Shown one piece after another: positions 4,450 through 20,377 of a stretch of 26,132 nucleotides of DNA. The DNA comes from an uncultured bacterium. Lineage in GTDB: Bacteria; CSSED10-310; CAZUFC01. Position 1 is the first letter of the stretch. Every line of letters begins with the position of its first letter. The notes under the pieces are model-generated. The model ran no database searches, was not told where the DNA came from, and saw only the letters and a list, made by a program, of their open reading frames with translations. Location: the NCBI GenBank assembly GCA_964619725.1, contig CAZUFC010000109.1, forward strand, positions 1-26,132, in the 5' to 3' direction. The translations under genes were made by a program, and so were the position numbers.

Positions 4450-4492
4450 AACAAGAAGGGGCGAAGTCGTTCGCGAAAGGAGCCTGTTCAGC

Positions 4493-4959
4493 ATGAAAAA
4501 AACCGCTTTTTATTTTCACATAATTTTACTGGCGTTAACGGTAATGATATTTTCCATTTTTTCCTCACTATGTTCCAGGTCATTTGCGACCGGGAACATG
4601 TAGTGATTAACGCCGCTCACTGGCTGGCCGGACTGGGACAGGAAGCCCCGACGCCGACTGCCGCCGCAACGCCTACCAATACGCCCACCAATGTCCCCTC
4701 TTCAACCCCGACTGACACGCCTTCTAAAACACCAACCGAACAACCTACATCCACACTAACGCCGACAAACGTTCCCACTGATACACCGACAGCTCAACCG
4801 ACTGATACGACCACTTTTACGCCGACTCTACCCTCTACTCCCTCGCCTACGCCTACGTCATCTCTACCCCCGATACCCGCTCTTCATGCTTACGGCATAA
4901 CTCTATTGATTGCTTTATTCGGCTTCGCCTTGTCTGGCGCATTAAAACGTAAAAAATAG
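4493..4959 (+). pseudogene. Remnant of a surface protein: signal peptide, frame change, Pro/Thr linker, IPTL-CTERM-like anchor; passenger domain missing
   Basis: RBS + ATG 4493 reads MKKTAFYFHIILLALTVMIFSIFSSLCSRSFATGNM then TAG (4601-4603). A different frame (4570..4959) gives VINAAHWLAG, a PT linker and IPALHAYG-TM-KRKK. Confidence 0.7.
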
Positions 4960-5094
4960 CGCATCCAGAACCGCCCGACGAAAATCATCATCCGAATTAT
5001 ATGACATTCCGGATTTTTGATGGTAATAAAACAAGCGGCCGAATGATTTTCCTCGCTGAGGCATCAGGCAAAACATCTTCAAAAGGGGTTGGCT

Positions 5095-7239
5095 ATGCAA
5101 CGATTTCATTTGTGGCTCTTGCCGGCGATATTTTTTATTTTTCAGATGTATTTAATAACGACGCATGCCGAATATATTTCTTTCAACGACGGTACTTCAG
5201 AAAGCCTCACCTGGGATATTGATCATATCGACCGGGGAATGCGGATTACAGTTAATTTTCCGGGAGTTGAAATTCGCTCGATATCTCGTGATGGACATGA
5301 ATTCGAACAATTGGAAATAATGGGTTGCGGATTAAAGGGCAAAACCGGCGCTCCCTATTTGCCTTTCAGGGGGTTGTTTGTCGAAGTTCCCGGGGGAGTT
5401 GATGTACGGGTTGAAGCTCATGAAAAGGATTCTTCGGTAAGGCTTCCGGGATACCGTAAAATTTACCCGGCGCAGCCGCCCCAGCCTGATTGCGGAACGA
5501 AAGACTCGCCTCCCGAATTTTATTTTTCCGAAACATTATACAACTCGGATATAAAACTCCCTGAATCACTGGTGCAAATAACGGGGGACGGTTATATCCG
5601 GGGCCGCAGGGTCCTTTTTTTGGAAATAACGCCTGTACAATATAATCCGGCGAAGGGTATCGTAGAGGGCTTTCCGGGACTGGAATTCGAGCTTATTTAT
5701 TCCGGCGAGGCCGATCCTGTGTATGAAGAGAAGAAACGAAGGCTGGCTGCCGGGCCTTTTGAACGGCTTGCCGGTTCGGTAATCGCCAATTATGAACCTG
5801 TCGAACCGACCCGGATCAAGGGAGATCGTGACGGAGCGGAATACCTGATCATCACCCATGATGCTTTTGCGGATGAACTGCAACCGTTGGCGGAATGGAA
5901 AACATTAAAAGGGTGGGAGGCGACGGTGACGACTTTGACGGAGATAGGAGGTTCCACGCCGGCTGACATACAGAATTATTTACAGAATGCCTATGATACC
6001 TGGACACCGGCGCCGGTATTCGTCCTTTTAGTCGGCGATGTGGAACAGATGCCGTCTAATTTCGATTCGTATGATCTGACCGACCTGCCTTATTCCTGCC
6101 TGGACGGCGGGGATGATTTTGCAGACGTTTTTCTGGGTCGTTTAAGCATCCAGACTGAAAACAAATGCACAACCGTCGTGGACAAGATACTCCAATTCGA
6201 TCGGACGCCGGAAATAGCAGACTGGTATAACAGCGCATTATGCGCGGCTTATCTTCAGGATACTTATTCACCCTATTGCGAGGCCGACCGGTGGTTTTTC
6301 GAGACTGCAACCCATGTCATGGAATACCTGGAGAACGTTCAGGGGATGAACATGTACACATCGTACTGCACAAACGCAAGCGGCTGCGACACTTATCATT
6401 TCCGTTCCGACAGCTTTCCCCACCGTTTTAACTGGCCCGATCCCATTCCTCAGAACCTGGTCGACCTGATCACGCCGGCATCCCAGGCGACCAGCGACAT
6501 ATCCTGGCAAACGGATGAACCCGCCGACACCGTTCTGACCTGGGGCGAGGCTTCTCCTCCCGTAAATACGGAAACAGAAGATGAACTGACGACTGAACAC
6601 AGCATAACGCTCAGCGGACTCAATGACTGCACGAAATATTATTTCAAAGTCTCCTCGACCGATGCTTACGATAATGAAGCTGCGGACGATCAGGGCGGTT
6701 CCTTTTATTTCTTCAAGACGTATGAGGTTATGACGCTGTTCGAGGAAAACATGGACTCGGACCCGGAGTGGTCGCTTTCCTGCGGTTTGTGGTGGTTTGG
6801 CCGGCCCGCAGGTCTGGGCGGCTACTACGGCGGACCCGACCCGGACGACGGCGATATGACCGGCACGGCTGCTGCCGGAGATAAATACGCTGTAAACAGT
6901 TTAAATCTGATTATTACGGCTGATGCGACAGGAATGTCTGCCGGAGAATACCACGAAGCCATAATAAAGGTTACGGAAAACAACAGCGATTTCAACATAC
7001 CCGTCTCCATATCAGTAACCGATCAACCTACGCCGACGTCCGAACCGACGGTTACGCCGAGTCAAACGCCGACGGTTACGCCGAACGTGACGCCCACAGA
7101 TATCTCAACATATACGCCGACCAATACGCCCACCCACGCGCCGATACCCGCCAATGGTACAGTGGGAGCCGGAATATTGCTGATTTTGTCTACAGCCGTT
7201 TTGATCCTTTTTAGAAATGCTGATGCGCCGGCGCAATAA
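5095..7239 (+). CDS. Gingipain-like peptidase C25 protein (propeptide + N-terminal part of the catalytic domain + FN3-like + Ig-like + PT linker + IPTL-CTERM-like anchor), apparently internally deleted and inactive
   Basis: Propeptide motifs (GAPYLP, PAQPP, PVQYNP) and C25 motifs (YLIIT, LAEWK..KG, FVLLVGD, DLPY, DVFLGRLS); FN3-like WQTDEPAD...HSITLSGL...YYFKVSS. No His-Gly anywhere in the ORF. ATG 5095 follows AAGGGG. Confidence 0.8.
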   Translation: MQRFHLWLLPAIFFIFQMYLITTHAEYISFNDGTSESLTWDIDHIDRGMRITVNFPGVEIRSISRDGHEFEQLEIMGCGLKGKTGAPYLPFRGLFVEVPGGVDVRVEAHEKDSSVRLPGYRKIYPAQPPQPDCGTKDSPPEFYFSETLYNSDIKLPESLVQITGDGYIRGRRVLFLEITPVQYNPAKGIVEGFPGLEFELIYSGEADPVYEEKKRRLAAGPFERLAGSVIANYEPVEPTRIKGDRDGAEYLIITHDAFADELQPLAEWKTLKGWEATVTTLTEIGGSTPADIQNYLQNAYDTWTPAPVFVLLVGDVEQMPSNFDSYDLTDLPYSCLDGGDDFADVFLGRLSIQTENKCTTVVDKILQFDRTPEIADWYNSALCAAYLQDTYSPYCEADRWFFETATHVMEYLENVQGMNMYTSYCTNASGCDTYHFRSDSFPHRFNWPDPIPQNLVDLITPASQATSDISWQTDEPADTVLTWGEASPPVNTETEDELTTEHSITLSGLNDCTKYYFKVSSTDAYDNEAADDQGGSFYFFKTYEVMTLFEENMDSDPEWSLSCGLWWFGRPAGLGGYYGGPDPDDGDMTGTAAAGDKYAVNSLNLIITADATGMSAGEYHEAIIKVTENNSDFNIPVSISVTDQPTPTSEPTVTPSQTPTVTPNVTPTDISTYTPTNTPTHAPIPANGTVGAGILLILSTAVLILFRNADAPAQ

Positions 7240-7953: not shown

Positions 7954-9231
7954 ATGTTCAGGTTTCCGTTGGAACATTGGGGATTCAAGGCATTAAACGG
8001 ACGACTTCATTTGGGCAGATACGATTTGACGGCATTGGCGGACCGTGAGGGGACTCCTTTTTATCTGTTTGACGAACAGCGGTTGAAGACTAACATACAT
8101 AAGGCTCATGATGCCTTGCGCGACTATGGTGTAAAAAGCCGGATGTATTATTCGATGAAGACCAACAGTCATTCGGGAGTTTTGCGGATCGTCAGGGATG
8201 AGGGATTGAGCGTTGAGGTCATATCATCGGTGGAGATGGAGCGAGGAATTCAGGCGGGATTCTCTTTGCAGGATATGATCCTTAACGGTCCTGGGAAGAC
8301 GGATTCAGAACTTGAAACAGCAGCTTCGGCAGGGGCTTTGATCCATGTGGAATCCCTGAGTGAGGCTGAATCGCTGGTGCACATAGCGGATGATATAAAA
8401 AAGGCGGTTTTTGCCGGCGTGCGAATCAATCCGGATATATATGAAGAAAGGGCTTTGAAGACGTTGAGGATGGGTGCCGGGATATTCGGCATGGCCCCTG
8501 AGAGCGAGGAATTCAAAACCGTCGTTCAACTTTTCAAAAAAAATAAATACGTTCGTTTTAAATCTCTTTCGGCTCATATCGGCACAGGAATAATCAGCGT
8601 GGAGCCTTATCAAAGGCTTATTTCTAAACTTTTAAAAATACGAAATAAACTTCAAAAACAAAACGTCGATATTTCACTGATAGACATCGGCGGAGGATTC
8701 TCCGTGGCGTCTGAAGTGAGATATTCGCAGAGCCGGTTTGATGAGTTGGTCAGCGAAGCCGGCGATGTTCCGTCACCGGATGAAATAGAGACATTCGACG
8801 ACATCTGTAAGGCTATAGCTGAGGTACTGCCGCAGGAACAGCCGCCTATAATCGTAATGGAGCCGGGCCGGTCGCTGGTTTCCGATTCTTTTCATCTGCT
8901 GACCCGCGTGGTCAGAATAAAAGAACACAAAGGCGAAAAGATCGCCGTGGTCGATGCAGGACGGGTTCAGAACGCGCTGTTCGTCGGCCGGGGTTATCAT
9001 GAGTTCATTCATGCCGGCGATCCCCTGGGGGCTAAAAAAGAAAATTATACCATTGCGGGACCTTTGTGCGCTGAATTGGATATATATGCAAGGTCCAAAA
9101 ATATGCCTGAGTTGAAGGAAGGCGATGTTATTCTGATAGCCGACGTCGGGGCTTATAACCTGTCCGCTCAGTCACAGTGGTCGCATAAACCGGCTCAGGT
9201 AAAGCCGATATCCGATTATTCCGAACCTTAA
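7954..9231 (+). CDS. PLP-dependent fold-type III decarboxylase (diaminopimelate decarboxylase/LysA-like, atypical substrate motifs)
   Basis: YSMKTN (PLP lysine), NGPGK, VRINP, HIGTG, DIGGG, EPGRSLV, GPLCAELD and GAY motifs; RBS GAGGAG. Confidence 0.88.
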   Translation: MFRFPLEHWGFKALNGRLHLGRYDLTALADREGTPFYLFDEQRLKTNIHKAHDALRDYGVKSRMYYSMKTNSHSGVLRIVRDEGLSVEVISSVEMERGIQAGFSLQDMILNGPGKTDSELETAASAGALIHVESLSEAESLVHIADDIKKAVFAGVRINPDIYEERALKTLRMGAGIFGMAPESEEFKTVVQLFKKNKYVRFKSLSAHIGTGIISVEPYQRLISKLLKIRNKLQKQNVDISLIDIGGGFSVASEVRYSQSRFDELVSEAGDVPSPDEIETFDDICKAIAEVLPQEQPPIIVMEPGRSLVSDSFHLLTRVVRIKEHKGEKIAVVDAGRVQNALFVGRGYHEFIHAGDPLGAKKENYTIAGPLCAELDIYARSKNMPELKEGDVILIADVGAYNLSAQSQWSHKPAQVKPISDYSEP

Positions 9232-9245
9232 ATATCCTTTTTGAA

Positions 9246-10502
9246 ATGAAGAACATTTCCTCGCTGTTGCGCTCCATTCCCTGTTACCTTAAGCTTCGTC
9301 GCACCCAGTACCGGCACCCTGAAGCAATCGAACGATTAAGACAAAAAAAAATCGAACGGACCTTAACGGCAGGGCTGCGGATACCTTTTTACAGAAAGCG
9401 GTGGAAGGAAGGGGTTCAACCCGCGGATATACCTGACCTTCCCATAACGAAAAGAGAAGACATCAGTGAATTGAACGAATCAGTCCGGTCGCTTTATCCT
9501 GAAGGAACCGGTTTTCTTGTCGACCGTTCTTCCGGTTCGACGGGGATGCCGGTTGAGTTTATATTCGACGTTTCTCATCAGGCAGAGCGATTCGCCTGCA
9601 GAATCCGGTATTTGAGAGAAAACGGATGGAGTCCGTTCAAGCGCTGCGCCTGGATTATCCCCATACCGAAAAATACGCCCGACGGCAAATTGATACGACT
9701 CAACAAGTTCTGGGGAATGAAATTCCTGTCTCTTTTCAATGATTTCGAATACCAGTTGAACTGGTTGAAACAGATTAATCCCTATACGCTTTACACTCTG
9801 CCTTCCAACCTGGAAGGACTCCTTAACCTCATTGAAAAAACAGGAATAAAATTCCCGCGCCTTCACACTATCTTCACAGGAGGAGAAGTTCTCGAAAAAA
9901 CAGTCAGCGAACGGGCAAGCAAAATGTTGAACGTGCGTATTTCGGATAATTACGGTTCCACGGAAGCTTTCCCCGCCTGGCAATGTCCTGCCGGAAACTA
10001 CCATATAAATTCTGAACACGTCCTTCTGGAAATAGTTGACGAAAACGGAAATAAAGTTAATGCCGGCGAATCCGGAAGAATAATCCTGACGACCCTAGAT
10101 AATTACATCATGCCTCTCATACGTTACCAAATAGGCGATTACGGCATTGCTTCCGATACGGTCTGCTCTTGCGGACGCACTCTTCCGTGTCTGCAAAGCA
10201 TACTGGGCCGTTCCATCGATCTGTTTCGTCTCAAAAACGGTAAAATATTATCACCCTGGGAGATCGTCGTCAGGATAAAGTACAACTCGGCTATAAAGCA
10301 ATTCCAGATCATACAGAATGCTTATGATCGATTCGTTTTCCGGTATAAACCGCAAGATGGAGCCGATTCGTTCGATAAAAATGTGATCAGACGCTGCTTC
10401 ACCGATGTCATTCGATACCCCGTAGACGTTGAATTTCAAAAAGCGGAAAAAATAGACCGTTTGCCGTCAGGAAAATTCAGAACAGCCATATCGAATATCT
10501 GA
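9246..10502 (+). CDS. Phenylacetate-CoA ligase/CapK-family adenylate-forming enzyme
   Basis: LPITKRED, SSGSTGMP P-loop, GGE, DNYGSTE, MPLIRYQIGD, CSCGR, LGRS and SGKFR motifs; starts 14 bp after the decarboxylase. Confidence 0.88.
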   Translation: MKNISSLLRSIPCYLKLRRTQYRHPEAIERLRQKKIERTLTAGLRIPFYRKRWKEGVQPADIPDLPITKREDISELNESVRSLYPEGTGFLVDRSSGSTGMPVEFIFDVSHQAERFACRIRYLRENGWSPFKRCAWIIPIPKNTPDGKLIRLNKFWGMKFLSLFNDFEYQLNWLKQINPYTLYTLPSNLEGLLNLIEKTGIKFPRLHTIFTGGEVLEKTVSERASKMLNVRISDNYGSTEAFPAWQCPAGNYHINSEHVLLEIVDENGNKVNAGESGRIILTTLDNYIMPLIRYQIGDYGIASDTVCSCGRTLPCLQSILGRSIDLFRLKNGKILSPWEIVVRIKYNSAIKQFQIIQNAYDRFVFRYKPQDGADSFDKNVIRRCFTDVIRYPVDVEFQKAEKIDRLPSGKFRTAISNI

Positions 10503-10508
10503 ACGGAT

Positions 10509-13500
10509 TCACAGATGTCCGGCATTGAATCGCCTCCTAAGGATCAAGCTCATCACCATGCCCAGCAAGGAGACGAGGACGACGATACCGCCTGCGCCCA
10601 AAGCCGGTATATAGGCCGGCGTGGATACGGCTGTGGGTGTAGGCGAGTTCGCGGGCGTCGGCGTCATACTCGGCTGGTATGCCGTGTCCACACTCAACCA
10701 GGCCGCATCCAGGAGGGCGCCGTGATGATCAGACCAGGACTCGACGCCTCTGCCTCCGTCCTCCCAATAGATATATCGCAGACCGGGGCCGTAATCGGTG
10801 AAAACGTGCGACAACCGTTTCCAGAAGTTGTACGCAAGCAATTCGTCCGAGTAGTATGAAGCGATGACCTGTCTGCCGGCGTCGCGTAGTTCAACCAGGA
10901 GGTAGTATCGATCATTACATAACGGATTGGCGCCGCGGAACCATTCGTGTGCATGCACGGCGGGCGCTGCGTCCAGTTGGGACGGACTGAAGCCGAGAGC
11001 CGCCAGGTCCACTTCCTGGCTCCTGGTATTCCAGACCTCCGATGTAGCGAAAGCGTGACCGCCCTCGTATATTTCGTCGGTCCGCACGGCCCATCCGGCG
11101 CCTCCGCCTTGCAAGACTGTCCATCCGGTCAGGTCGCCTGTTTCTGCGCCGGGGTTCTCCAGCAAGTTGGCTGTCAACGGAGTCGGCGTACCGGTGGGGG
11201 TCATCGTCGCGGTTATGGTAGGCGTATTCGTCACAGTAGGCGTGTCGGTCGGTTCCGGCGTCATAGTGATTGTCGGCGTCGCTGTCGGCGGCGGTTGCGT
11301 CACGCCCAGCACTCCTACAAAAGCGTGATCGAGTATTGTGCCGATGAAGGCAGCGTATTCGTGTTGTCCATCCATGCCTCCGTCCTCGAAATAAATATAT
11401 CGTAATCCCGGACCATACCCGGAAAGATTGCACGTGTGTACCTCCCACTGGTCATAGACACCCAAAACACCGCTGTCATAAGCGGCGATTGTTGCATGGG
11501 AAGCGTCGCGCAACTCCACCTTCATGTAAAACGTATCCGCTATGTAATCAATCCCGGAGTTTCGAAACCATTCGAATACCGCCACATCCGGCGCGCTGTC
11601 CAACTCTGCAGGGAGGAATCCCATAGCGATCAGGTCGATTTCCTGGCAGCGTCTCAGCCGGTTTGCGGTCGTCTGCACGGCCCACTGACCGTGGTAAGTT
11701 TCAGCATCGTTCATGACGTGCCCCGGACCGCCGCAAGCGTGCAGGATCGTCCATCCCTCGCAATCGCCAGTCTCCATGCTGGGGTTGACCAACAGATTAC
11801 AGGCGTTCGGCGTAGGAGTTAGCGTAGGAGTCGGGCTATTCGGGTCGGGGGATGGGGTGAAGGAGGGTGAGGGCGTCCATACCGGTTGGATATCGGTGCA
11901 GATCCTCAGGGAAGCATCATCAATGAAAGGCGCCGGATAGTAATCGAAAAGGCCGTAATACGCCTCTTCTTCCCAACGGATAAACCTCAAATCGCTCCCA
12001 TAATCAGCGAAAGTATGGCCTACATATTGCCATCCAAGGTACGAAGGCGTGATCTGTCCCGAGTCATAGGAGGTTATGACTTCATTAAACATATCGAGAA
12101 GCTCCACTTTCAGACGAAACCATGCTGTTCTCGGATAATTATTTTTGATCCATTCAGAAACAAGTATATCCGGCGATGCATCCAATTCGGCTGCGTCGTA
12201 ACCGCAAAACAAAAGATTAATGTCTTGGCTGCGCGTGCTTGTTTGGCCCTTCTCATCAAGGTAAAAGCTGTACTGCCCGCTTCGTGCGTTGGAGCTGACG
12301 GCCCACGGTCCCGATTCGATCGTCCAACCGTCTAAATTGCCTTGTTCCGCTCCGGGATTAGTCAGAATATTGATCAGTTGCGGCGTCGCGGAAGGGCTGG
12401 GGGTAGCCGTCGGCTGCGGCGTCGACGTCGGCGCCGGAGTGTCGGTCACGGTAACGGTCGGCGCCGGCGTCGGCGCAACTATATAGAGCCAGGCGTCGTC
12501 GATCTTCACTCCGGCGTAACCCGAATAGTATTCAACATCTCGCCCGGCATCCTCCCAGTAAAGATATCTGAGTCCCTGACCATAATCGGAGAATGAGGCT
12601 GACGTATGCCTCCATTTATTATCGGCGACAAGTTCACCGGTATCATGGGAGGCGATGGCTTCATGAGCCTCGTTCCGAAGCTCGATCCGGAATTTGAAAA
12701 TATCATTGTAGTTCGGGTCGTGACCTCGGTACCATTCCGAGGCTTGTACGATCGGGGCGGAGTCCAGCAAGTCCGGACTATAGCCCATCGCAACCAGGTC
12801 GATCTCCTGGCTGCGCACGCACCAGTCCCACGATGTGATGAACGATCGCCAATCGTGATGAAAGTCTTCACTCGTCGTGGACCATCCGTCTCCGCCCTCC
12901 GCCAAAATATTCCACCCCTCCAGGTTTTGGGTCTCGGCGCTGGGGTTGGTCAATAAATTCTTGAAACTCCAGCGTGAAATAAGCGTGGGCGTCGGGGATG
13001 GTGTTCCGGAGGGCGCTGCCGTCAACGTGGGCGTGGCTGTCGGCGTGACGCTCACATTAATAACCACGTACGCTTCATCAATGATCTCGCCATCCTGACC
13101 GAAAAGCCCTTCCGCAGACTCGCCGCCGTCCTCGAAGTAAATATAGCGGACGCCCGGTCCATAGTCAGTGAAATTATGGGACGTCTGAAGCCATTCTTCG
13201 CTCGCCGTAAGATACCCAGTGCTGAATTCAGCTATCGGCTCGCGATCAGAATCTCGCAGTTGAACGGTCATAAAGAAATTGTCCGCGTAATCAGGCGGAC
13301 GGCCGCGGTACCATTCCGAGACAGATATCACCGGTTCTGCATCGAGTTGTTCGGAGGTAAATCCGAGCGCCGCCAGGTTTATCTCCTGCTTTCGTGCACC
13401 GAAAGTTGTGTGAACAGCAGCGTAAGCGCCCTCATGAGCCGCTTCGTCCGTTATTCCCCAGCGTCCGATGCCGTCGAGGATGTGCCAACCTTCCATGTTG

Positions 13501-15029
13501 CCCCACTCCATACTCGGATTAACAAGTAAGTTAAAATAATCCGGTCCGGTGAGCGGCGTCGGCGTAAACGTATGGGTGGGGGGTAATGTGGGTGAAGGGG
13601 TCGGCGTTGTCCCGACCGGTTCGGCGTCAACAGCCAACCAGGCATCATCCGACTTCGCTCCGTAATAGGAGAATGAACTCTCCTGTCCCTCGCCGCCGTC
13701 CTGGAAGTGAACATACCGCACTCCCGGTCCGTAATCGCTGAAGGTATGCTCCAGTCGAACCCAGGATTCCGTCCCGGTCTGCCAACCGGAATCGTAGACA
13801 TCTATCAGATTGAGGTTGCTGTCGAATAATTCAACCTTTAAAAAGTAACCGTCGTTGTACTCCGGGGCGCTGCCCTTGAACATTTCCGACACATAAATAT
13901 CTGGCGCTGCATCCAGGTCTTCAGGAAGAAAGCCGTAATCGACGAGATCGACAGCTTGAACCCGCCGACAAAACGGGCATGACATGATGAAAGAGTATAT
14001 CCCGGTGTAGGACTCGTCGGTCGTGACGCCCCATCCATCCGGGCCGGCCTCCAGTATCGTCCAGCCTGAAAGATCGCCGAACTCAGCGCCGGGATTCTCA
14101 AGGAGATTGAAGTCGCTCGGTCCCGGGGAAGGCGTATTCGTGACAGTGGGCGTGTTCGTCAGTGAAGGCGTCGGCGTAAGCGTAGGGCTTTGCATAGGCG
14201 TCGGCGTCCGATATGGGTCCAGGATCACGGAACCGTCGTCGATCGCAGCGCCGTGACTGCCGCTGAAGCTTTCAGCAGCCTGTCCGAAATCTTCGAAATA
14301 GATATAACGCAACCCCGGTCCGTATCCGCTGAATTCATGATACGCCTGCGACCAGTTCGCTCCGGTCGTAATAACGCCCGTCGTAAAATCCGCTATGACC
14401 TCGCTCGACGCATCCCGCAACTCAACGCTCAATCGATAAGTGTCGCCTGTGTCGGCGCTCGTCCCTTTATACCACTCCGACACCTCCACGACAGGTTCGG
14501 AATCGAGATACTCTTCGCTGTACCCGGCCGCAAGCAGATCGATTACCTGATGACGGTCACAGGGATTGTATGAGGTCAGAAATGAATATAACCCGCTATG
14601 ATATTCCGAGCCCGTCACGACCCAACCATGACTGGGCGGCCAGGTCGTCCAGCCATCTAGGTTCATCTCCTCCGCGCCGGGGTTAATCAGCAAATTGACG
14701 TTGTGCGGCGTCGGAGTAATGGTCGGCGTCGGTAAAGGCGTCGGCGGCAGTTCGGAACTGAAAGCCAACAAACAGTCGTCGACGCGAACCCCCTTGAGTC
14801 CCTGGCCATACTCGGAATCTGAACTGCTTTCCTCCCAACGGATATACCGCAACCCGCTTCCATAATAGTTAATAACCGTCGCCTCCTGATGCCATTCACC
14901 ACAGGTCAATTGTTCACCGGGATCGAAGACGGCAAGCGACCGGCGTTCGGCATCCAGCAACAAAACCTTCAAGTGATAGTGGTCCCAGACGTTCGACCCC
15001 GTTCCGCAATACCAGGAAGAAATAGCCAC
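10509..15029 (-). CDS. Large surface-anchored protein of tandem FBA-like (F-box-associated sugar-binding) domains with Pro/Thr linkers and IPTL-CTERM-like anchor (main open part; the frame stays open to 15143)
   Basis: Repeating unit NLLxNPxAExGxLxGW...F.TS..C.RxQxIDLxxxGYxxxxLDxxPxIxVSEWY...W....H.F.DYGPGxRYIxFEDGG...G..xDDA matches the recalled FBXO2/FBXO6 pattern (NLLRNPC..E...GW, QVIDL..EGY...LLD, HTF.DYGPGVRF..F.HGG). C-terminus IPALGAGG-TM-RRR. Confidence 0.85.
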   Translation of the reverse strand: MAISSWYCGTGSNVWDHYHLKVLLLDAERRSLAVFDPGEQLTCGEWHQEATVINYYGSGLRYIRWEESSSDSEYGQGLKGVRVDDCLLAFSSELPPTPLPTPTITPTPHNVNLLINPGAEEMNLDGWTTWPPSHGWVVTGSEYHSGLYSFLTSYNPCDRHQVIDLLAAGYSEEYLDSEPVVEVSEWYKGTSADTGDTYRLSVELRDASSEVIADFTTGVITTGANWSQAYHEFSGYGPGLRYIYFEDFGQAAESFSGSHGAAIDDGSVILDPYRTPTPMQSPTLTPTPSLTNTPTVTNTPSPGPSDFNLLENPGAEFGDLSGWTILEAGPDGWGVTTDESYTGIYSFIMSCPFCRRVQAVDLVDYGFLPEDLDAAPDIYVSEMFKGSAPEYNDGYFLKVELFDSNLNLIDVYDSGWQTGTESWVRLEHTFSDYGPGVRYVHFQDGGEGQESSFSYYGAKSDDAWLAVDAEPVGTTPTPSPTLPPTHTFTPTPLTGPDYFNLLVNPSMEWGNMEGWHILDGIGRWGITDEAAHEGAYAAVHTTFGARKQEINLAALGFTSEQLDAEPVISVSEWYRGRPPDYADNFFMTVQLRDSDREPIAEFSTGYLTASEEWLQTSHNFTDYGPGVRYIYFEDGGESAEGLFGQDGEIIDEAYVVINVSVTPTATPTLTAAPSGTPSPTPTLISRWSFKNLLTNPSAETQNLEGWNILAEGGDGWSTTSEDFHHDWRSFITSWDWCVRSQEIDLVAMGYSPDLLDSAPIVQASEWYRGHDPNYNDIFKFRIELRNEAHEAIASHDTGELVADNKWRHTSASFSDYGQGLRYLYWEDAGRDVEYYSGYAGVKIDDAWLYIVAPTPAPTVTVTDTPAPTSTPQPTATPSPSATPQLINILTNPGAEQGNLDGWTIESGPWAVSSNARSGQYSFYLDEKGQTSTRSQDINLLFCGYDAAELDASPDILVSEWIKNNYPRTAWFRLKVELLDMFNEVITSYDSGQITPSYLGWQYVGHTFADYGSDLRFIRWEEEAYYGLFDYYPAPFIDDASLRICTDIQPVWTPSPSFTPSPDPNSPTPTLTPTPNACNLLVNPSMETGDCEGWTILHACGGPGHVMNDAETYHGQWAVQTTANRLRRCQEIDLIAMGFLPAELDSAPDVAVFEWFRNSGIDYIADTFYMKVELRDASHATIAAYDSGVLGVYDQWEVHTCNLSGYGPGLRYIYFEDGGMDGQHEYAAFIGTILDHAFVGVLGVTQPPPTATPTITMTPEPTDTPTVTNTPTITATMTPTGTPTPLTANLLENPGAETGDLTGWTVLQGGGAGWAVRTDEIYEGGHAFATSEVWNTRSQEVDLAALGFSPSQLDAAPAVHAHEWFRGANPLCNDRYYLLVELRDAGRQVIASYYSDELLAYNFWKRLSHVFTDYGPGLRYIYWEDGGRGVESWSDHHGALLDAAWLSVDTAYQPSMTPTPANSPTPTAVSTPAYIPALGAGGIVVLVSLLGMVMSLILRRRFNAGHL

Positions 15030-15143
15030 GGGCGGTGAGGAATCCAGATAAGCGGGATCGTAACCGAGAGCGATCAGGTCGATCTCCTGGGCTCGTTCGC
15101 AATAGATTGAATCGATGAAAGACCATTGACCGGACCGAGGTTC

Positions 15144-15338
15144 CTAGTCCGTTACCCAGCAACCCTCACTTTTACACCAGATAAGGTCCCAGCCGTCGAC
15201 ATTCCCTGTCTCCGCATCCGGGTTGACCAGTAAATTGGTCAAGGGCGTCGGAGTGGCCAGGCATTGGGTCTCAGCTTGAACGCAAACGTCGGCAGTCGTC
15301 GCCGATGCTGCGAAAAACAGAGCGAAAATAAAAAACAT
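15144..15338 (-). CDS. N-terminal segment (signal peptide + start of FBA repeat 1) of the same gene, separated only by an in-frame TAG
   Basis: MFFIFALFFAASATTA signal-like sequence, then NLLVNPDAETGNVDGW...CWVTD-TAG-EPRSGQWSFIDSIYCERAQEIDLIALGYDPAYLDSSPP, continuing in frame into 15029. Confidence 0.8.
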   Translation of the reverse strand: MFFIFALFFAASATTADVCVQAETQCLATPTPLTNLLVNPDAETGNVDGWDLIWCKSEGCWVTD

Positions 15339-16006
15339 CTTAAAATGAATTCAACATCTTCATCGCTAAACCGATAAAACATTGAGCTTCGTGTATCGCT
15401 CATACCGTCACCTCTTATACTAATGATTCAAACCATGCTCCCGCTCTTTGGGCGTAGTGCGTTTTCGACCCAGAGTCAAAAGCAATTATGTTATGTAAAA
15501 AGACGATTTTTTATTTTCATAACGCCGTGATGTCGTCAACCCACGCGTAGATGATGTAATACGACACACCCTGGCCGGCTTTATTTTTGCCGATTTACGG
15601 AGAGAGTAATCCTGATGAAATACAAAATTATCAAGCCGGCAGTATGGGGTCGCGATAAGGGTCCTGTCGCCGCAAAAACATGCGCAAGCCATTCTTACCC
15701 GCCACCGGAGAACCGACCATAACGGCAGCAGCCGTTGACCGGTTGACAGGAATACCAATTTCATGCTGTTTCTCCTCATTCCTTGAAAAGGCGTGCATCA
15801 AACACCCATTTGAGTCTTTTTTACATAAAATATACGTTTTGTCAAATTTGTGACCAATCATTGTGTTTTATCTGATGATTTTAATTCAGATGTATCGTTT
15901 GCCCGCGGCGGCCGAATTTCGAGCCGTTCAAGAATGCGTTGTATGTCTTCCTTTTGATTGCGAAGGACGCTGACGTCCTCATTCCAGCGTCATCCACTGA
16001 TTTTTA

Positions 16007-18847
16007 CTATTCAAACCACAGTCGTCTTAATCTGGCGCCGAGCGTTCGGTCATCCGGACTTATGCCTGTTTCTCGGGGAATGAAGGTTTTATCGGTTTGA
16101 AAAGCAACGATAAAGCGTTCATTGAATCCCATCAATCTTTCGGGGATTCTCAGATGAGCGGCACGGGTTCGACCCGGTTTGAGGGGCATGGAATAAGTCG
16201 AGTTGCCTGTGCTGATGGCCAGAGTCGTCGGCGGGGCTCCGTATGGAAGGTCGAATTCCACGTATAATCTTGCATCGCGGAAGGGATTCAGGAAAGAAAC
16301 TTCAGCTTCCCCCTTCATCCAGCGCCAGAATTCGCCGTCACCTGTTTTTTCCAGGGCGTACCAACCTTCCAGCGGTTTTATTTTTCTTTTTTCGGGCAGT
16401 TTCGGGACTTCCTCGTACGCTTTAACGATAATTTCCTTCGTGATCGGCGTTTCCATTTTAAATTCTGATTCATCCTCATTGAGATTCAGTATAATGAGAT
16501 TCATTTTTCGGGTTTCTGCCGCTTTTGGAATCCACAAATCCAGCCTGACGAATTTTTTTAAATTTTCCCGCGTTATCCGATCAGCGTAAAAAGAGCGAAG
16601 CGATAAAGTATCTTTGTCGTCATCAGTCAGAATGACTTCAAATTTTTCATTTTTTTCCAGCATTTTTTCATTCACATAAAGGAGCAGAGACAGGGGGCGC
16701 CCTGAAGGAATTTTCCGTGGTTTTGAGTAAGTTTCATCAATCAGGATCGTTTCATCGACTTCACTGATTATCATGTCATGCGGTTCGGGCTGAAAGGGCT
16801 TCTCCGCCAAAACAGGAAGATACAATCTGACGGCATCCTGATCGTATATCCTTTGAAGCCGGTCAAATTTTTCGACGCCATCGGGAAAGAGGGCTCTGGC
16901 TGCAGGTTCGGAAAAAATCAAACTGATTCTCAGTTCCTGGGCCTTTGCAACGGCTGTTCGAGGATCGGGGGTTTGAAATATGGTTTCCACTTGAGCAAGC
17001 CGGGCATAGTAATCCTGGTCAGGTATCATAAAGATGCGAGCGTGCATGTAATCGGCGACGGCAGTAGGTCGTTCGGCCATGGTGGGCAGAAACGAATACG
17101 TTCTGATGGTCGGTTCCGATTGCACGACGACATCCCTGGGGGTATGCTTTTTCAACCATTCGCAGGCGTTCAGTTCAGGGTCGGTAAAGGTCGTCGTAAA
17201 GGCGGGATTCGTTATATCCTGGGCATTCCATACGTCCATCAGCGGGGTCGGCAGAGCGGGCAGCGCCAGAACAAGGAACAGGATTAAAGCCGCTATTTTT
17301 TTCCGAAAGGCGATAAATTCAAGGCCGCGGCAGGCCAGGTATATCAAGCCCACATTGGCTATCAGCCCTACTTTTAGAGCCACGTCGGATTCGAAAGAAC
17401 GGATTCGGGTAAACAGCATCATACCCAGGGCCAGGGCAGTGAGTATTTCGACGGGTAAATCGATGGGCTTATGACTTTTTACTGAGCGAGCGATGCCGAT
17501 AACGGCCAAAGGAAGTATAGGCCCGAAATTCAAGAACAATATGGCGATGATGTTGACTATATCGGTTTGAATGGGACCGATAATCACGAAACCGCCGCCG
17601 GTGTTGATCATCTGCAGGGCGTAGTAAATCAATCCTGCGATGCCGATAACGGCCAGTGCGCCGATGCCCCTGGAAAAAAGCGCTTTTCGCCGTCCTGCGT
17701 CCATGATGAGACGAACCGCCCACAACAGACCCAGCCATGCGATGGCGGTAATTCCCAGAAACGAATTGAATCCGAAAAGCACAACCAGGATGATCGATGC
17801 CGTCAAAGCGACGGGCCAGTCCTTCAATTTTCGTCCCGAACCGAGCACAAGCAGGCAAAGGAGTATGAGCGACAGCCCGAAAAGGTGTTGCGGGGTGTAC
17901 ATCATTCCGCGAAAGAGTCCGTCGATTTGAGGGTGTCCGAAATACCAGCGGGTGACGGCATCGACGTTATGTTCTGCGGTGACGCGACGCAAGGTCTGAC
18001 CGAGCCGTACCGCGCGAATCAACAGATAGGAGCCTTCGTAGCTGTAAAAGAGGGTCGCCATGGACAACCCGGCGCCCATGATGAACGATGATTTGACCGA
18101 ACGCCTGAGAAATACAGCAAACAGTCCTATAAAGGCGAAATTAACTATCATGGACATGAATATCATCTGGGACAACAGAGGAGCTGCAGCTCCCGCCGTA
18201 CGATGAAGCAGGGCCGGAAACACGTAGAAAAACCAGTAATAATGCAATGTGGTTCCCAGGTAATAGTGATTAGGGGGAGGCAATTTCCCCCGGCTCAAAA
18301 TAGCCGCCACTCCGACATGTTTCAGATAATCGCCCGAAAAATAAGCCCGGAAAGCTTTCGTACCCGCTATTGAAGCGCCTATATTGCGCCAGGGCATGTA
18401 AAGCATGGCGGTCGTTATCAAACAGAACAGCAGAATAACGGCGGCATCACGGCGGGTTAAATCCGGCATCTCAATCAGAGGCTTGCGTTTCCGTCGACGA
18501 CTGGAAATGACTAAACCCGCTGCAGAGGCAGCGATAATTATGGGATAGGCGCATTTGACATCCAGCTTGAATGCAGCCCAACCGGCGACTGTTAATAACA
18601 CTGCGGCGCTGTATCCCATCAGAAACAGAACAGGCATATTGCCGGGTTTGATCTGAAGCCCTGCAAAACGCATTATGGGTATTCCCGGAACGATGAATAC
18701 CAGCAGGAGCGACAAATAAAACAGCGCGCTGGTTATTCCTAATTTATCGAAAAAGAAGAGAACGCTTATCGTAACCGTTGCCGCCGGAATCATGTAGAAC
18801 GATAACGCCTGGAGTCTGTTTTTGTTTTTCTTTTCTTTTTCGTTCAT
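16007..18847 (-). CDS. Large polytopic membrane protein, GT-C-like (DUF2298/YYY-type or STT3-like architecture) with extracytoplasmic C-terminal domains
   Basis: About 13-15 TM segments; loop motif DYLKH...LPPPNHYYLGTTLHYYWFFY; ACEWLKKHTP.D.VV immediately after the TM block; terminal beta domain GWY..E......WRW. Confidence 0.65.
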   Translation of the reverse strand: MNEKEKKNKNRLQALSFYMIPAATVTISVLFFFDKLGITSALFYLSLLLVFIVPGIPIMRFAGLQIKPGNMPVLFLMGYSAAVLLTVAGWAAFKLDVKCAYPIIIAASAAGLVISSRRRKRKPLIEMPDLTRRDAAVILLFCLITTAMLYMPWRNIGASIAGTKAFRAYFSGDYLKHVGVAAILSRGKLPPPNHYYLGTTLHYYWFFYVFPALLHRTAGAAAPLLSQMIFMSMIVNFAFIGLFAVFLRRSVKSSFIMGAGLSMATLFYSYEGSYLLIRAVRLGQTLRRVTAEHNVDAVTRWYFGHPQIDGLFRGMMYTPQHLFGLSLILLCLLVLGSGRKLKDWPVALTASIILVVLFGFNSFLGITAIAWLGLLWAVRLIMDAGRRKALFSRGIGALAVIGIAGLIYYALQMINTGGGFVIIGPIQTDIVNIIAILFLNFGPILPLAVIGIARSVKSHKPIDLPVEILTALALGMMLFTRIRSFESDVALKVGLIANVGLIYLACRGLEFIAFRKKIAALILFLVLALPALPTPLMDVWNAQDITNPAFTTTFTDPELNACEWLKKHTPRDVVVQSEPTIRTYSFLPTMAERPTAVADYMHARIFMIPDQDYYARLAQVETIFQTPDPRTAVAKAQELRISLIFSEPAARALFPDGVEKFDRLQRIYDQDAVRLYLPVLAEKPFQPEPHDMIISEVDETILIDETYSKPRKIPSGRPLSLLLYVNEKMLEKNEKFEVILTDDDKDTLSLRSFYADRITRENLKKFVRLDLWIPKAAETRKMNLIILNLNEDESEFKMETPITKEIIVKAYEEVPKLPEKRKIKPLEGWYALEKTGDGEFWRWMKGEAEVSFLNPFRDARLYVEFDLPYGAPPTTLAISTGNSTYSMPLKPGRTRAAHLRIPERLMGFNERFIVAFQTDKTFIPRETGISPDDRTLGARLRRLWFE

Positions 18848-19126: not shown

Positions 19127-20323
19127 TTACAATTCCCCGGCTTTCTTTTGTTTGTTAAGGATGGGAATAACTGATGCAGCGACCTTTTCAGCGATCAGAG
19201 CGCATCCGGCTGCGTTGGGATGGACGATATCGAAGAAGTATTCTGCGTTATTTGCTGCGTTTTTTTCCGTCAGCAGGGGGATGGCTATGCAGGGTGTTCC
19301 GGTCTGGGCCGATAATTTCCTTAGTTGCTCTCTGTATATTTCTATAGGAAATTCCATTTTGAACGAGAGGAAGTATGGAACCAGGGTATCTTTTTCAAAA
19401 GGACTTTCGAGGAGGAGCAGGTCGAATCCGCGTCTTTCGCCCAGTTCAATCATTTGTTCGACGTTGGCGCTGTATTCTTCTGGTCTGACCCTGGCCCTGC
19501 AGTATTGGTGGAAGTTCAGCATGGCGTTTTTATATTCGGGGTACCGTGGATGTTTCGTATGGTCCTGCATGCGCCAGAAATCAGCTTCGAGGGCCGTCCA
19601 TTCGATGAAGCGTTTCAATTTTTCGCTGCGCATGTCTTTGTCTTCGGGGAACAGACGTTTTGTTTTCAGGAGCAAATAGCGGAGGAATTCGTAGAAATAG
19701 CTGGAGCGCAGTATGGAGCGCCAACCGGTCATAGTTTTGCCGTAATTAATCAGTTCATTGTCGGAATAGAAAAACATACGGGCATCATTAAAGCCGGAGC
19801 AGAAGACGACGACATCAGGTTTAAGAGAAACGCCGACTGAGGAGAGCCATTCCAGGCATTGCCGGCTAGCATATCCGGGGACTCCTGCGTTGATGACTCT
19901 GACCGGAATATTGGGAAATGCTGTCTGCACAATATTTTCCAGCCTGAAAGGCCAGGTTGCGGATTCAGGAACAGCGTAACCGTAAGTAACTGAGTCGCCG
20001 ATACAGAGTATTCTGATTTCATCGGCATCGTTTTTTTCCGGGATTTCCGCTGAGCGGATTCCGAGGCTGTTGATGTATGCATGGGCCTTTTCCAGGTACA
20101 TTTCATCGCTGATGGGATCAATCCGCCACAGAAGGACGGGGTCGAACAGATAGCAATCTGCATCAGAGTCGACAGACCTGACGAGTCGACGAAATTCCTC
20201 GTCCTCCTGCGGCGGAGTCCATAGGAGCCTTAAAGCGCCCTCGGCAATTCCCAGGAATATAATAACGGAAAGCACTGAAACGGCGAATTTAGCAGCATAT
20301 CTGCCGCCGTAGCGATTTGACAT
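19127..20323 (-). CDS. Membrane-anchored SGNH/GDSL hydrolase (esterase or acyltransferase of surface glycans)
   Basis: N-terminal TM (AEGALRL), block I GDSVTYG, block II NAGVPGY, block III GFND, block V DIVHPN. Confidence 0.88.
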   Translation of the reverse strand: MSNRYGGRYAAKFAVSVLSVIIFLGIAEGALRLLWTPPQEDEEFRRLVRSVDSDADCYLFDPVLLWRIDPISDEMYLEKAHAYINSLGIRSAEIPEKNDADEIRILCIGDSVTYGYAVPESATWPFRLENIVQTAFPNIPVRVINAGVPGYASRQCLEWLSSVGVSLKPDVVVFCSGFNDARMFFYSDNELINYGKTMTGWRSILRSSYFYEFLRYLLLKTKRLFPEDKDMRSEKLKRFIEWTALEADFWRMQDHTKHPRYPEYKNAMLNFHQYCRARVRPEEYSANVEQMIELGERRGFDLLLLESPFEKDTLVPYFLSFKMEFPIEIYREQLRKLSAQTGTPCIAIPLLTEKNAANNAEYFFDIVHPNAAGCALIAEKVAASVIPILNKQKKAGEL

Positions 20324-20377
20324 CAACTCTATATTTCGTTTCTTGGTTGTTGCTGTGTTTGTCCAGTCAGGGTTTAT

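Follow-up and report, generated by a model that had tools for sequence, protein, structure and literature searches.

Organization of the locus

The window, i.e., the whole 26,132-nucleotide stretch of DNA that was analysed, comes from an uncultured bacterium of a mat and contains on its minus strand a long reading frame made up of eight FBA repeats, Pro/Thr-rich linkers and a sorting-type C-terminal tail. Its features are as follows.

10509-15338, minus strand: eight-FBA gene, from the ATG at 15338 to the stop at 10509-10511, 1609 codons
15270-15338, minus strand: start ATG and signal-like N-terminus, residues 1-23, translation MFFIFALFFAASATTADVCVQAE
14754-15236, minus strand: FBA repeat 1, residues 35-195, PF04300 53.1 bits, holds the TAG
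15144-15146, minus strand: in-frame TAG, codon 65, inside repeat 1
14217-14696, minus strand: FBA repeat 2, residues 215-374, PF04300 98.6 bits, pocket Y/S/F
13626-14108, minus strand: FBA repeat 3, residues 411-571, PF04300 79.4 bits, pocket C/S/S
13053-13532, minus strand: FBA repeat 4, residues 603-762, PF04300 68.6 bits, pocket T/G/L
12477-12959, minus strand: FBA repeat 5, residues 794-954, PF04300 99.2 bits, pocket W/Y/Y
11898-12371, minus strand: FBA repeat 6, residues 990-1147, PF04300 46.7 bits, indel in the beta9-beta10 loop
11301-11798, minus strand: FBA repeat 7, residues 1181-1346, PF04300 39.1 bits, pocket A/H/Y
10686-11168, minus strand: FBA repeat 8, residues 1391-1551, PF04300 87.3 bits, pocket E/S/W
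10611-14753, minus strand: eight Pro/Thr-rich linkers, between and after the domains, 19-44 aa each
14697-14753, 14109-14216, 13533-13625 and 12960-13052, minus strand: linkers 1-4
12372-12476, 11799-11897, 11169-11300 and 10611-10685, minus strand: linkers 5-8
10512-10610, minus strand: sorting-type tail, IPAL, a 20-residue hydrophobic helix, RRR and 6 residues
10509-10511, minus strand: stop codon, 6 bases from a convergent AMP-ligase gene ending at 10502

An earlier note on this DNA, made from the sequence alone, had described eight tandem repeats separated by Pro/Thr linkers, with a signal-like N-terminus and a C-terminal IPAL-TM-RRR anchor. All eight repeats were present in the minus-strand frame, and their start peptides were found exactly as listed there. 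The domain cores are 158-166 aa long and share a pairwise identity of 32-50% (mean 40%). The linkers were confirmed as well, the last of which (25 aa) directly precedes the tail, and the tail reads IPAL-GAGGIVVLVSLLGMVMSLIL-RRR. However, the frame is not unbroken from 10509 to 15338 as that note described it, since the reading frame from the ATG at 15338 is interrupted once, by the TAG at codon 65, which was not mentioned there. The uninterrupted part of the frame is 10509-15143 (1544 codons), and in public records the gene is called as a 1506-aa piece with a GTG start (10509-15029).

The N-terminus (MFFIFALFFAASATTA...) runs from a hydrophobic stretch into small residues; it appears signal-like, as had been noted, though its n-region has neither Lys nor Arg. 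No Shine-Dalgarno motif was found upstream of the ATG at 15338, and an ATG at 15403 has a strong one but opens another frame. Since the n-region is not basic, the ATG at 15338 has no Shine-Dalgarno motif and a rival ATG is at hand, the true start is uncertain.

The GC content of the flanking genes (46-51%) is genome-like. That of the domain-coding DNA is 53.9%, which places it in the top 2.6% among 2576 long frames, and that of the linker DNA is 65.2%. A second tail-bearing open frame lies on the same contig at 4441-4959. With this frame on the contig and the genome-like GC of the flanks, a contaminant contig is unlikely. Misassembled or collapsed repeats were also rejected as unlikely, because the DNA of the copies is at best 60-80% alike even in its best-conserved 60 nt.

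Family identity and fold of the repeats

Each repeat is a genuine FBA (PF04300) domain, as had been proposed from the motif order. The PF04300 model matched the whole protein in 8 stretches with an E-value of 1.3e-162 and 536.7 bits, far beyond chance, and each of the eight repeats searched singly scored above the curated Pfam cut-off of 32.4 bits (39.1-99.2 bits). A profile built on the repeats matched FBXO2, FBXO44 and FBXO6 chains over the full domain length (E-values of 1.4e-32 to 2.4e-26). Repeat 5, the one repeat of the eight that was modelled, gave an AlphaFold2 model with a pLDDT of 97.8. The best Foldseek match of this model was 1umi_A, the sugar-binding domain of Fbs1 (TM 0.94, rmsd 1.4 A, E-value 1e-17, 31% identity), and its ten best matches were all Fbs1, Fbs2 or FBG3 (TM 0.86-0.94). 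Neither piece of the protein gave an F-box or F-box-like hit at an E-value of 1 or less, in agreement with the F-box-less architecture first described, and repeat 1 is preceded by 34 residues only. A match to positions 1-56 of the FBA profile is also present in P0176, a protein with six CBM_4_9 repeats.

The repeats might instead be ordinary polysaccharide-binding modules of the CBM4/9/16/22 type that merely resemble FBA. This view can draw on a weak CBM_4_9 (PF02018) match of 19.4 bits, on the partial profile match to P0176, and on the structures of CBM22, CBM61, CBM16 and CBM4, which are the next fold neighbours of repeat 5. However, the CBM_4_9 score falls under its cut-off of 25.9 bits and stands against 536.7 bits for FBA, and the CBM structures reach a TM of at most 0.70 at 7-17% identity against 0.94 at 31% for Fbs1. 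The Pfam scores, the repeat-profile matches and the Foldseek results thus rule out assignment to a CBM4/9/16 family, and we consider a CBM nature of the repeats very improbable. An S-layer protein was rejected as well: residues 889-961, in the PT-linker/repeat 5-6 region, matched an anammox S-layer model with 20.5 bits against a cut-off of 1400.

Interruption of the reading frame by TAG

The amber stop parts the signal peptide from the remainder of the protein. TAG closes 365 of the 2599 long open frames of the genome and is therefore an ordinary stop there. PylS was not found in the genome (best match 28.9 bits against a cut-off of 178), nor was a CUA-anticodon tRNA present among the 45 tRNAs found in it; as the genome is approximately 91% complete, these absences are not proof. 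Since TAG acts as a stop in this genome and neither PylS nor a CUA tRNA was found, the gene is split as assembled.

The letters of the TAG codon are identical, with no differences listed, in a contig of run X1, possibly the source sample itself. They are also identical in a contig of run X3, which ends 18 bases past the codon and gives weak second-sample support. The codon lies outside the coverage of runs X2 and X4. The allele has most likely been inactivated, and recently so, given that the 1544 codons beyond the TAG have stayed open.

Alternatively, the TAG could stem from an error in the consensus or belong to a minority allele; most cells would then carry an intact gene for a working eight-domain surface lectin. 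The open downstream codons and the scores of all eight domains above the Pfam cut-off agree with this explanation. In addition, the depth is low (approximately 8.9 in X1 and 2.9 in X3), only one possibly independent contig reaches the codon, near the contig end, and rare variants drop out of assembled contigs. Nevertheless, X1 and X3 agree on the letters, and single-base consensus errors are uncommon at about 9-fold depth. We regard an intact gene in most cells as somewhat unlikely. Recoding was ruled out on the PylS, tRNA and stop-usage results given above, and read-through of the TAG in normal expression, by pyrrolysine or an amber suppressor, which has the long open frame after the stop in its favour and nothing else, is left with hardly any chance.

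C-terminal tail and exosortase

The C-terminal tail scored 12 bits (hmmscan) and 18 bits (six-frame search) against the IPTL-CTERM model TIGR04174, whose cut-off of 20.5 bits was passed by two of the nine genome matches listed. Among the 194 open frames of the genome with a C-terminal helix and a basic cluster, 143 have [IV]P just before the helix, compared with 11 of the same 194 frames in a control window, and IPAL is the commonest form of the tail in the genome. A single exosortase-family gene was found in the genome (TIGR04178, 67.9 bits). It is nearest to archaeosortase B (ArtB) and XrtH but falls below every subtype cut-off, and the JGI names of its homologues include some 'archaeosortase B (VPXXXP-CTERM-specific)' and one 'exosortase H (IPTLxxWG-CTERM-specific)'.

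The genome thus holds what characterizes exosortase/archaeosortase substrates, namely a terminal motif-helix-basic cluster arrangement and many proteins with the same tail beside the enzyme. Since the tail is below the IPTL-CTERM cut-off and the exosortase below the subtype cut-offs, we only infer that this enzyme and this tail are paired. The two may represent a subtype without an existing model.

Sugar-pocket residues

The FBA domain of Fbs1 recognises the N-glycan core and has been used to capture N-glycopeptides (PMC5457524). According to PMC4603797, the residues of Fbs1 that stack on GlcNAc2 are F177, Y279 and W280, and FBG3/FBXO44 keeps this triad, yet does not bind sugar. As aligned, the triad is fully aromatic in one of the eight repeats (repeat 5, W/Y/Y), as against 135 of 262 other aligned FBA domains, and the W280 position is Trp in one of the eight repeats as against 215 of the 262. 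Besides repeat 5, the W280 position is aromatic in repeats 2, 7 and 8. Two triad positions are aromatic in repeat 2, one each in repeats 1, 7 and 8, and none in repeats 3, 4 and 6, in an alignment of the loops that is uncertain, particularly for the pocket of repeat 6, owing to the indel in its beta9-beta10 loop.

Because the full triad is found in only one of the eight repeats, binding of the chitobiose core should not be assumed for the array, and the possible binding of N-glycosylated surfaces put forward in the earlier note was overstated. Conversely, the pocket residues alone do not decide binding either way, because FBG3/FBXO44 retains the triad without binding sugar.

The modules may even be past lectin function, serving as protein-binding or purely structural units in a fibril or spacer layer on the surface. 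The seven repeats without a full triad, three of which have no aromatic residue at any triad position, would suit such a role, and FBXO44 offers a precedent for the same fold without sugar binding (PMC4603797). However, FBA domains elsewhere in prokaryotes travel with glycosidases and with lyase-like and lectin-like modules, repeat 5 keeps W/Y/Y, the W280 position is aromatic in three further repeats, and the loop alignments are uncertain. A non-lectin role is considered unlikely, and glycan binding is retained as the preferred function of the modules.

FBA domains in other prokaryotes and origin of the repeats

A contig scan with four of the repeats yielded 29 strong prokaryotic FBA loci in 12 named phyla, two archaeal. 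A profile search gave 1259 hits. Of 174 proteins retrieved, 122 carry a single FBA copy and 38 carry two; three copies occur in 8 of them, four in 2 and five in 1, and 3 proteins have none. The eight copies of the window protein are the maximum seen, and the other arrays have two to five. The domain is fused with NAGPA glycosidase, PLD, pectate-lyase-type beta-helix with dockerin, PKD and cadherin-like domains, and furthermore with RTX, PA14, ricin, SLH and T9SS tail domains, company that speaks for its extracellular use in prokaryotes. FBA was found in none of 60 other related genomes, including all 13 of the same, small phylum, and in none of 14 control genomes. No close orthologue was found: the 90% cluster of the protein has one member, and the 103 pattern matches of a metagenome contig scan with repeats 1-2 included no relative.

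Databases already list F-box-less FBA domains from both bacteria and archaea, some of them in tandem arrays of 2-5 copies. The earlier note had considered that tandem-FBA surface proteins might turn out to be a common, already described bacterial family. This was not borne out, as the domain proved to be rare and literature searches found no paper on prokaryotic FBA proteins. What is new here is how many copies there are and how they are anchored; FBA as such is not new to bacteria. A recent horizontal acquisition may be considered in view of the high GC content of the domain-coding DNA and the absence of FBA from the 13 genomes of the same phylum, but no donor-like close relative was found.

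The free trees scatter the eight repeats, with 5 changes in FastTree (270 rows) and 4 in the quick tree (101 rows). Holding the eight repeats together as one clade improved the tree by 64 log-likelihood units over the free quick search (p-AU 0.94). Since the AU test favours the one-clade tree, the free quick search was suboptimal. Most likely, the eight copies arose by long-ago internal duplication of one ancestral domain, a view supported by the one-clade tree and by the low likeness (60-80%) of the copies at the DNA level.

The sampled eukaryotic FBA domains formed one well-supported group among diverse prokaryotic ones in an unrooted tree, from which no donor or direction of transfer was drawn. 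Because these domains group together, the origin of the ERAD lectins becomes testable with a rooted tree. A far-reaching proposal, which we hold to be quite doubtful, is that FBA is an old prokaryotic family of extracellular lectins or CBMs from which the eukaryotic cytosolic quality-control lectins of the Fbs1 type derive by a single transfer. The window protein would then be a working panel of eight ancient, diverged modules with rebuilt binding loops, each tuned to a different surface glycan of neighbouring organisms in the mat, be it an N-glycan of archaea or eukaryotes or an exopolysaccharide. It would be displayed via an unmodelled exosortase subtype, with the TAG as a mere strain variant.

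Proposed function and significance

We think it reasonably probable that the product of the gene is, or until very recently was, an exported surface protein with eight FBA modules and a sorted tail that acts as a multivalent glycan binder, the allele in this assembly being most likely freshly inactivated. In the proposed sequence of events, Sec export would come first. The tail would then be recognised by the genome's single ArtB/XrtH-like exosortase, leading to anchoring at the surface, where the eight modules may act together as a multivalent glycan binder in the manner of carbohydrate-binding modules. Repeat 5 would contribute its aromatic triad, the counterpart of the residues with which Fbs1 stacks on GlcNAc-GlcNAc, and the rebuilt binding loops of the other repeats probably mean a different ligand or a pocket no longer used. 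The extracellular, multivalent use first suggested for the array is consistent with the predicted export signal and sorting tail. Overall, the protein is an architectural variant of a catalogued, unstudied lectin-like family, and its allele is probably a freshly inactivated one.

Judged from sequence, the Fbs1 fold, at approximately 30% identity, appears to serve extracellularly in bacteria and archaea that belong to at least 12 phyla. The prokaryotic FBA proteins form a pool of possible new glycan binders, of which the window protein is an extreme case with eight natural loop variants on one scaffold. This value is tempered by the early stop and by the fact that FBA in bacteria is already in databases.

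Comparison with known systems

Fbs1/FBXO2, Fbs2/FBXO6 and FBG3/FBXO44 belong to the same Pfam family as the window repeats and have the same ten-stranded beta-sandwich. As aligned, Fbs1 and repeat 5 both have aromatic residues at all three GlcNAc2-stacking positions, whereas the triad is incomplete in the remaining seven copies. The lectin-type F-box proteins have an F-box/Skp1-binding part and one FBA copy, whereas the window protein has no such part and eight copies. Moreover, the Fbs1-type lectins are cytosolic, whereas export and anchoring are predicted for the window protein.

CBM4/9, CBM16, CBM22 and CBM61 modules share the general fold class of the FBA repeats. They also have the N-terminal NLLxNP..E..GW strand motif in common with the repeats, and a role as an appended glycan binder is likewise likely. 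However, their structural likeness to the repeats is far weaker (TM of 0.70 or less), and the sequence match is below the family threshold.

The substrates of the exosortase/archaeosortase systems (PEP-CTERM, IPTL-CTERM, IPTLxxWG-CTERM/XrtH and VPXXXP-CTERM/ArtB) carry the same three-part tail of motif, membrane helix and basic cluster, and in these systems, too, many paralogous tail carriers and an exosortase-family enzyme occur in one genome. They differ in that the tail here has the motif [IV]P[AS]x and scores under the IPTL-CTERM cut-off, and that the enzyme is under every subtype cut-off.

The closest likeness in architecture is to the uncharacterised prokaryotic FBA proteins, which are also F-box-less, of secreted or surface type and in some cases tandem, and whose domains share approximately 40-54% identity with the window repeats. 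Examples are the 5xFBA and 4xFBA DUF4347 giant proteins of a Methylococcaceae MAG (P0037, P0038), the 3xFBA protein of Pyxidicoccus sp. (P0039), the 3xFBA-NAGPA protein of Archangium primigenium (P0002) and 2xFBA proteins with a T9SS tail (P0047, P0050, P0052, P0054). These proteins have one to five copies, usually beside enzyme or adhesin modules, whereas the window protein has eight copies and nothing else, set on PT stalks and ending in an [IV]PAx tail.

Repeat structure and family assignment

Translation of the minus-strand FBA gene yielded 1609 codons from the ATG at 15338 to the stop at 10509-10511, and all eight repeat-start peptides listed in the earlier note were matched exactly. The N-terminus of the protein is MFFIFALFFAASATTADVCVQAE, and the C-terminus consists of IPAL, 20 hydrophobic residues, RRR, and six further residues. 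The eight repeat cores are 158-166 residues each and are separated by Pro/Thr-rich linkers.

Repeats of the FBA protein (minus strand): first residue; residues at the positions of mouse Fbs1 F177/Y279/W280; length of the Pro/Thr-rich linker that follows
Repeat 1: 35; I/Y/G; 19
Repeat 2: 215; Y/S/F; 36
Repeat 3: 411; C/S/S; 31
Repeat 4: 603; T/G/L; 31
Repeat 5: 794; W/Y/Y; 35
Repeat 6: 990; E/G/L (indel in this region); 33
Repeat 7: 1181; A/H/Y; 44
Repeat 8: 1391; E/S/W; 25 (last linker, before the C-terminal tail)

The pairwise identity among the cores was 32-50% (mean 40%), and at the DNA level the best-conserved 60 bases were just 60-80% alike. Tandem Repeats Finder reported a single short 18-base array and nothing else. 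Since the DNA likeness is low and only this one array was found, the copies must be old, and the repeats are unlikely to stem from a collapse or chimera in the assembly.

The assignment to the FBA family (PF04300) made in the earlier note was correct. PF04300 matched the protein in eight stretches (E 1.3e-162, 536.7 bits). In a six-frame search of G000, the genome holding the window, every repeat individually exceeded the cut-off of 32.4 bits (53.1, 98.6, 79.4, 68.6, 99.2, 46.7, 39.1, and 87.3 bits for repeats 1 to 8), and PF04300 had no match elsewhere in the genome. As the note had stated, no F-box is present: none of the F-box families matched the protein at E up to 1 in the Pfam search. 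Against PDB sequences, a profile of the eight repeats retrieved solely FBXO2, FBXO44, and FBXO6 chains, aligned across the whole domain (8 distinct sequences, E 1.4e-32 to 2.4e-26). An AlphaFold2 model was made for one repeat, repeat 5, from a 31-row alignment (mean pLDDT 97.8), and its top ten Foldseek matches in the PDB were all Fbs1, Fbs2, or FBG3 (TM 0.86-0.94), the best being 1umi_A (rmsd 1.4 A, 31% identity). The next group comprised a phage tailspike domain, followed by CBM22, CBM61, CBM16, and CBM4, at TM up to 0.70. A CBM4/9/16-type identity was rejected, because these CBM structures did not exceed TM 0.70 and CBM_4_9 matched the protein at 19.4 bits, under its cut-off of 25.9.

One retrieved protein, P0176 (1536 aa, six CBM_4_9 repeats), gave ten matches to positions 2-56 of the FBA profile (E 3.1e-36). 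The N-terminal strand motif NLLxNP..E..GW is therefore common to FBA and CBM4/9, which hints at a common ancestry of the two.

An in-frame amber codon in repeat 1

The earlier note was right on the repeats but overlooked an in-frame TAG at codon 65, within repeat 1 (15144-15146, minus strand). The stretch open without interruption is 10509-15143, 1544 codons. The public protein collection holds just a 1506-residue piece with a GTG start, a one-member cluster on one contig. The G000 assembly (9.17 Mb) consists of 344 contigs, with a completeness of 90.9% and a contamination of 6.5%; one of these contigs, C109, makes up the entire window. Of the 2599 open frames in G000 with 400 codons or more, 365 end in TAG, the best match to PylS scored 28.9 bits against a cut-off of 178, and a CUA anticodon was found in none of the 45 tRNAs detected. 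These three results indicate that TAG is read as a stop in G000. The genome also encodes a tRNA-Sec (anticodon UCA, 60634-60730 of one contig), and therefore probably uses selenocysteine.

The TAG letters were unchanged in public contigs of two metagenome runs: X1, which may be the source sample, and X3, another sample of the same study, whose contig stops 18 bases past the codon. The matching contigs of runs X2 and X4 fall outside the TAG site. It is therefore probable that this population does carry the stop, though independent support is thin. Since the amber stop cuts the signal peptide off the rest of the protein, the assembled allele is most likely non-functional. The 1544 downstream codons are still open, and every one of the eight domains is still recognised as FBA; the lesion must therefore be recent or not fixed.

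The X4 contig (151 bases), which comes from another study's sediment metagenome, is about 98% like 14824-14974 and differs within repeat 1 by one non-synonymous (H150R) and two synonymous changes, suggesting a related strain elsewhere. A further frame overlaps the start of the FBA gene in a different reading frame:
15239-15403, minus strand: 54 codons from ATG 15403, with a strong Shine-Dalgarno-like AAGAGGTGA ahead; no match in the Pfam search
The FBA ATG at 15338 lies within a T6 run, with no Shine-Dalgarno-like motif. The 54-codon frame could be a leader ORF, or the sign of a second, frameshift lesion.

The sugar-binding pocket

According to passages of PMC4603797, N-glycan binding by mouse Fbs1 requires the hydrophobic contacts that Phe177, Tyr279, and Trp280 make with GlcNAc-GlcNAc, and FBG3 keeps the equivalent pocket residues, yet does not bind sugar. 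The three positions were mapped via the profile alignment to profile states 44, 144, and 145, and were read in 270 aligned FBA domains. Among the 262 non-window domains, Y, F, or W occupied the F177 position in 202 and the Y279 position in 149, Trp occupied the W280 position in 215, and all three positions were aromatic in 135. Among the eight window repeats, repeat 5 alone has the full aromatic triad. Even allowing that these are loop positions, that repeat 6 has an indel, and that the rows are not independent, the window array is unusually diverged at the site defining Fbs1 specificity.

The strongest candidate for Fbs1-like recognition of GlcNAc2 is repeat 5, and the other seven repeats probably have a different ligand or are inactive. 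Judged from these residues, it would be unsafe to take chitobiose-core binding as a property of the entire protein. The multivalent lectin or adhesin proposed in the earlier note is still plausible, but the case is weaker than was stated.

FBA domains outside eukaryotes

A seven-repeat profile was searched against 1.84 billion cluster representatives and retrieved 1259 proteins at E up to 0.001; at the stricter limits of 1e-10 and 1e-30, 737 and 241 remained, respectively. The window's protein scored highest (8 stretches), followed by P0037 (5) and P0038 (4). Of the 174 other retrieved proteins, 122 have a single near-complete domain, 38 have two, 8 have three, 2 have four, 1 has five, and 3 have none. 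Because the scores of all domains add up in the full-sequence score, any representative carrying more than five good copies would have come out at the top, and none did. The eight copies in the window are the largest tandem FBA array found.

Pfam architecture scans of 44 of the retrieved proteins revealed prokaryote-type partners: DUF4347 with PPC, cadherin-like, FG-GAP, or RTX; NAGPA phosphodiester glycosidase; PLD; beta-helix with PKD and dockerin; SLH; a T9SS sorting tail; PG-binding; ricin; and PA14. The eukaryote-type architecture was an F-box with 3-4 FBA copies. Carriers with a named source included a Methylococcaceae MAG (5 and 4 copies), Pyxidicoccus sp. and Myxococcus sp. (3 and 2 copies), Archangium primigenium (3 copies with NAGPA), and Hydrogenedentes and Chloroflexota MAGs.

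A one-genome-per-species scan, restricted to two peptide patterns, gave 39 loci, 29 of which reached at least 60 bits with the window-repeat profile. The strong loci span 12 named phyla, with one further locus in an unclassified bacterium.

Phyla with strong FBA loci
Bacterial (ten): Cyanobacteriota, Hydrogenedentota, Acidobacteriota, Nitrospirota, Bacteroidota, Planctomycetota, Myxococcota, Verrucomicrobiota, Peregrinibacteriota, Chloroflexota
Archaeal (two): Thermoplasmatota; Methanobacteriota (Methanophagales and related lineages)

Within the fetched stretches, each open frame held a single FBA domain. Two loci on one Thermoplasmata MAG chromosome (L013 and L038) have giant frames of more than 3300 aa each within the fetched stretch, with one FBA domain apiece, and an unclassified bacterium (L015) has two adjacent genes with one domain per gene.

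FBA was found in none of 60 other genomes, 13 of them of the same phylum, and in none of 14 controls; the domain is rare outside eukaryotes. The possibility raised in the earlier note, that tandem-FBA proteins are a common and already described bacterial family, was thus not borne out. Among the titles and abstract openings listed by searches of literature outside subscription journals, none concerned a prokaryotic FBA protein. The prokaryotic family is already catalogued in databases and unstudied in the literature, so the novelty is narrower than had been claimed: the copy number and the anchor are new, but prokaryotic FBA is not.

History of the array

In free searches, the eight repeats were scattered with weak support, among other prokaryotic domains in FastTree (270 rows, 5 changes) and likewise in a quick IQ-TREE search (101 rows, 4 changes). 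The best tree in which they were kept together was 64 log-likelihood units above the free IQ-TREE search (p-AU 0.94). Because the constrained tree is better, the simplest reading is that one ancestral domain was duplicated in place. In the unrooted 101-row tree, 14 rows counted as eukaryotic (F-box proteins, named animal proteins, and P0044, which has no detected F-box and is counted by its very high Pfam FBA score alone) formed one group (SH-aLRT 97%) among diverse prokaryotic groups. With an unrooted tree and many unlabelled rows, no direction of transfer is claimed.

The domain-coding DNA has 53.9% GC and 61.0% GC3, compared to 48.0 +/- 3.4% and 52.1 +/- 4.9% for 2576 long frames of G000, which ranks the gene within the highest 2.6% and 1.7%, respectively. 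Either a foreign origin or an amino-acid bias would fit these values. The JGI metagenome contigs yielded no close relative.

Neighbouring genes

The genes around the FBA gene are as follows.
7954-10502, plus strand: PLP-dependent decarboxylase beside an AMP-dependent ligase, convergent with the FBA gene
16007-18847, minus strand: 946-aa polytopic membrane protein, directly upstream
5089-7239, plus strand, and 19127-20326, 20378-22372, and 22632-25736, minus strand: other secreted-type genes
The second-best NCBIfam match of the decarboxylase was an 'exosortase A system-associated' decarboxylase (159 bits, cut-off 478), and the ligase resembles DVU_1553 and F390-synthetase-like families (112 bits, cut-off 300). 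The sole match of the membrane protein was weak (chlor_Arch_YYY domain, 37 bits vs 300), and it may be a large glycosyltransferase-like protein. The secreted-type products are a C25 (gingipain-family) peptidase with propeptide, a GDSL esterase, a choice-of-anchor-X protein, and a 1034-aa CBM96/DNRLRE-domain protein.

C-terminal tail and a candidate sorting enzyme

The tail of the FBA protein scored 12 and 18 bits with the IPTL-CTERM model, under the cut-off of 20.5. Of the 8109 stop-to-stop frames in G000 with 150 codons or more, all of which were scanned, 194 ended in a hydrophobic helix with a basic cluster. In 143 of the 194, [IV]P occurred within eight residues before the helix, compared to 11 of the 194 when a control window was taken from these proteins. 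Among the 143 frames, 65 were at least 1000 residues long and 79 had a Pro/Thr-rich stretch directly upstream. The pattern across them is [IV]P[AS]x, helix, and basic cluster, with IPAL (13 cases) as the commonest four-letter form. In the window, a 129-aa product from an ATG in 4441-4959 (plus strand) has the same tail type (PPIPALH, helix, KRKK) and no match in Pfam and NCBIfam searches.

G000 has a single exosortase/archaeosortase-family gene (TIGR04178, 67.9 bits).
1456-2025 of locus L010 (contig C134), minus strand: exosortase-family enzyme, 190 aa
Given the tail type and this gene, the FBA protein is one of the many proteins of this organism that are predicted to be sorted to the surface, and we infer that the C134 enzyme acts on these tails. 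The protein would be exported via the Sec pathway, then processed and anchored by the exosortase-type enzyme, and the PT stalks would hold eight beta-sandwich modules away from the cell, where they may act as a multivalent glycan binder, much as carbohydrate-binding modules do. The glycan-binding role is suggested by the domains that accompany FBA in other prokaryotic proteins.

The C134 enzyme was under every NCBIfam subtype cut-off, the nearest models being archaeosortase B (78.2 bits, cut-off 150) and exosortase H (76.6 bits, cut-off 86). Its homologues come from MAGs, some named by JGI 'archaeosortase B (VPXXXP-CTERM-specific)' and one 'exosortase H (IPTLxxWG-CTERM-specific)'. What is new is the largest tandem FBA array found, carrying a tail type with no existing model; the [IV]P[AS]x tails and the C134 enzyme may constitute a sorting system yet to be modelled, in a small candidate phylum.
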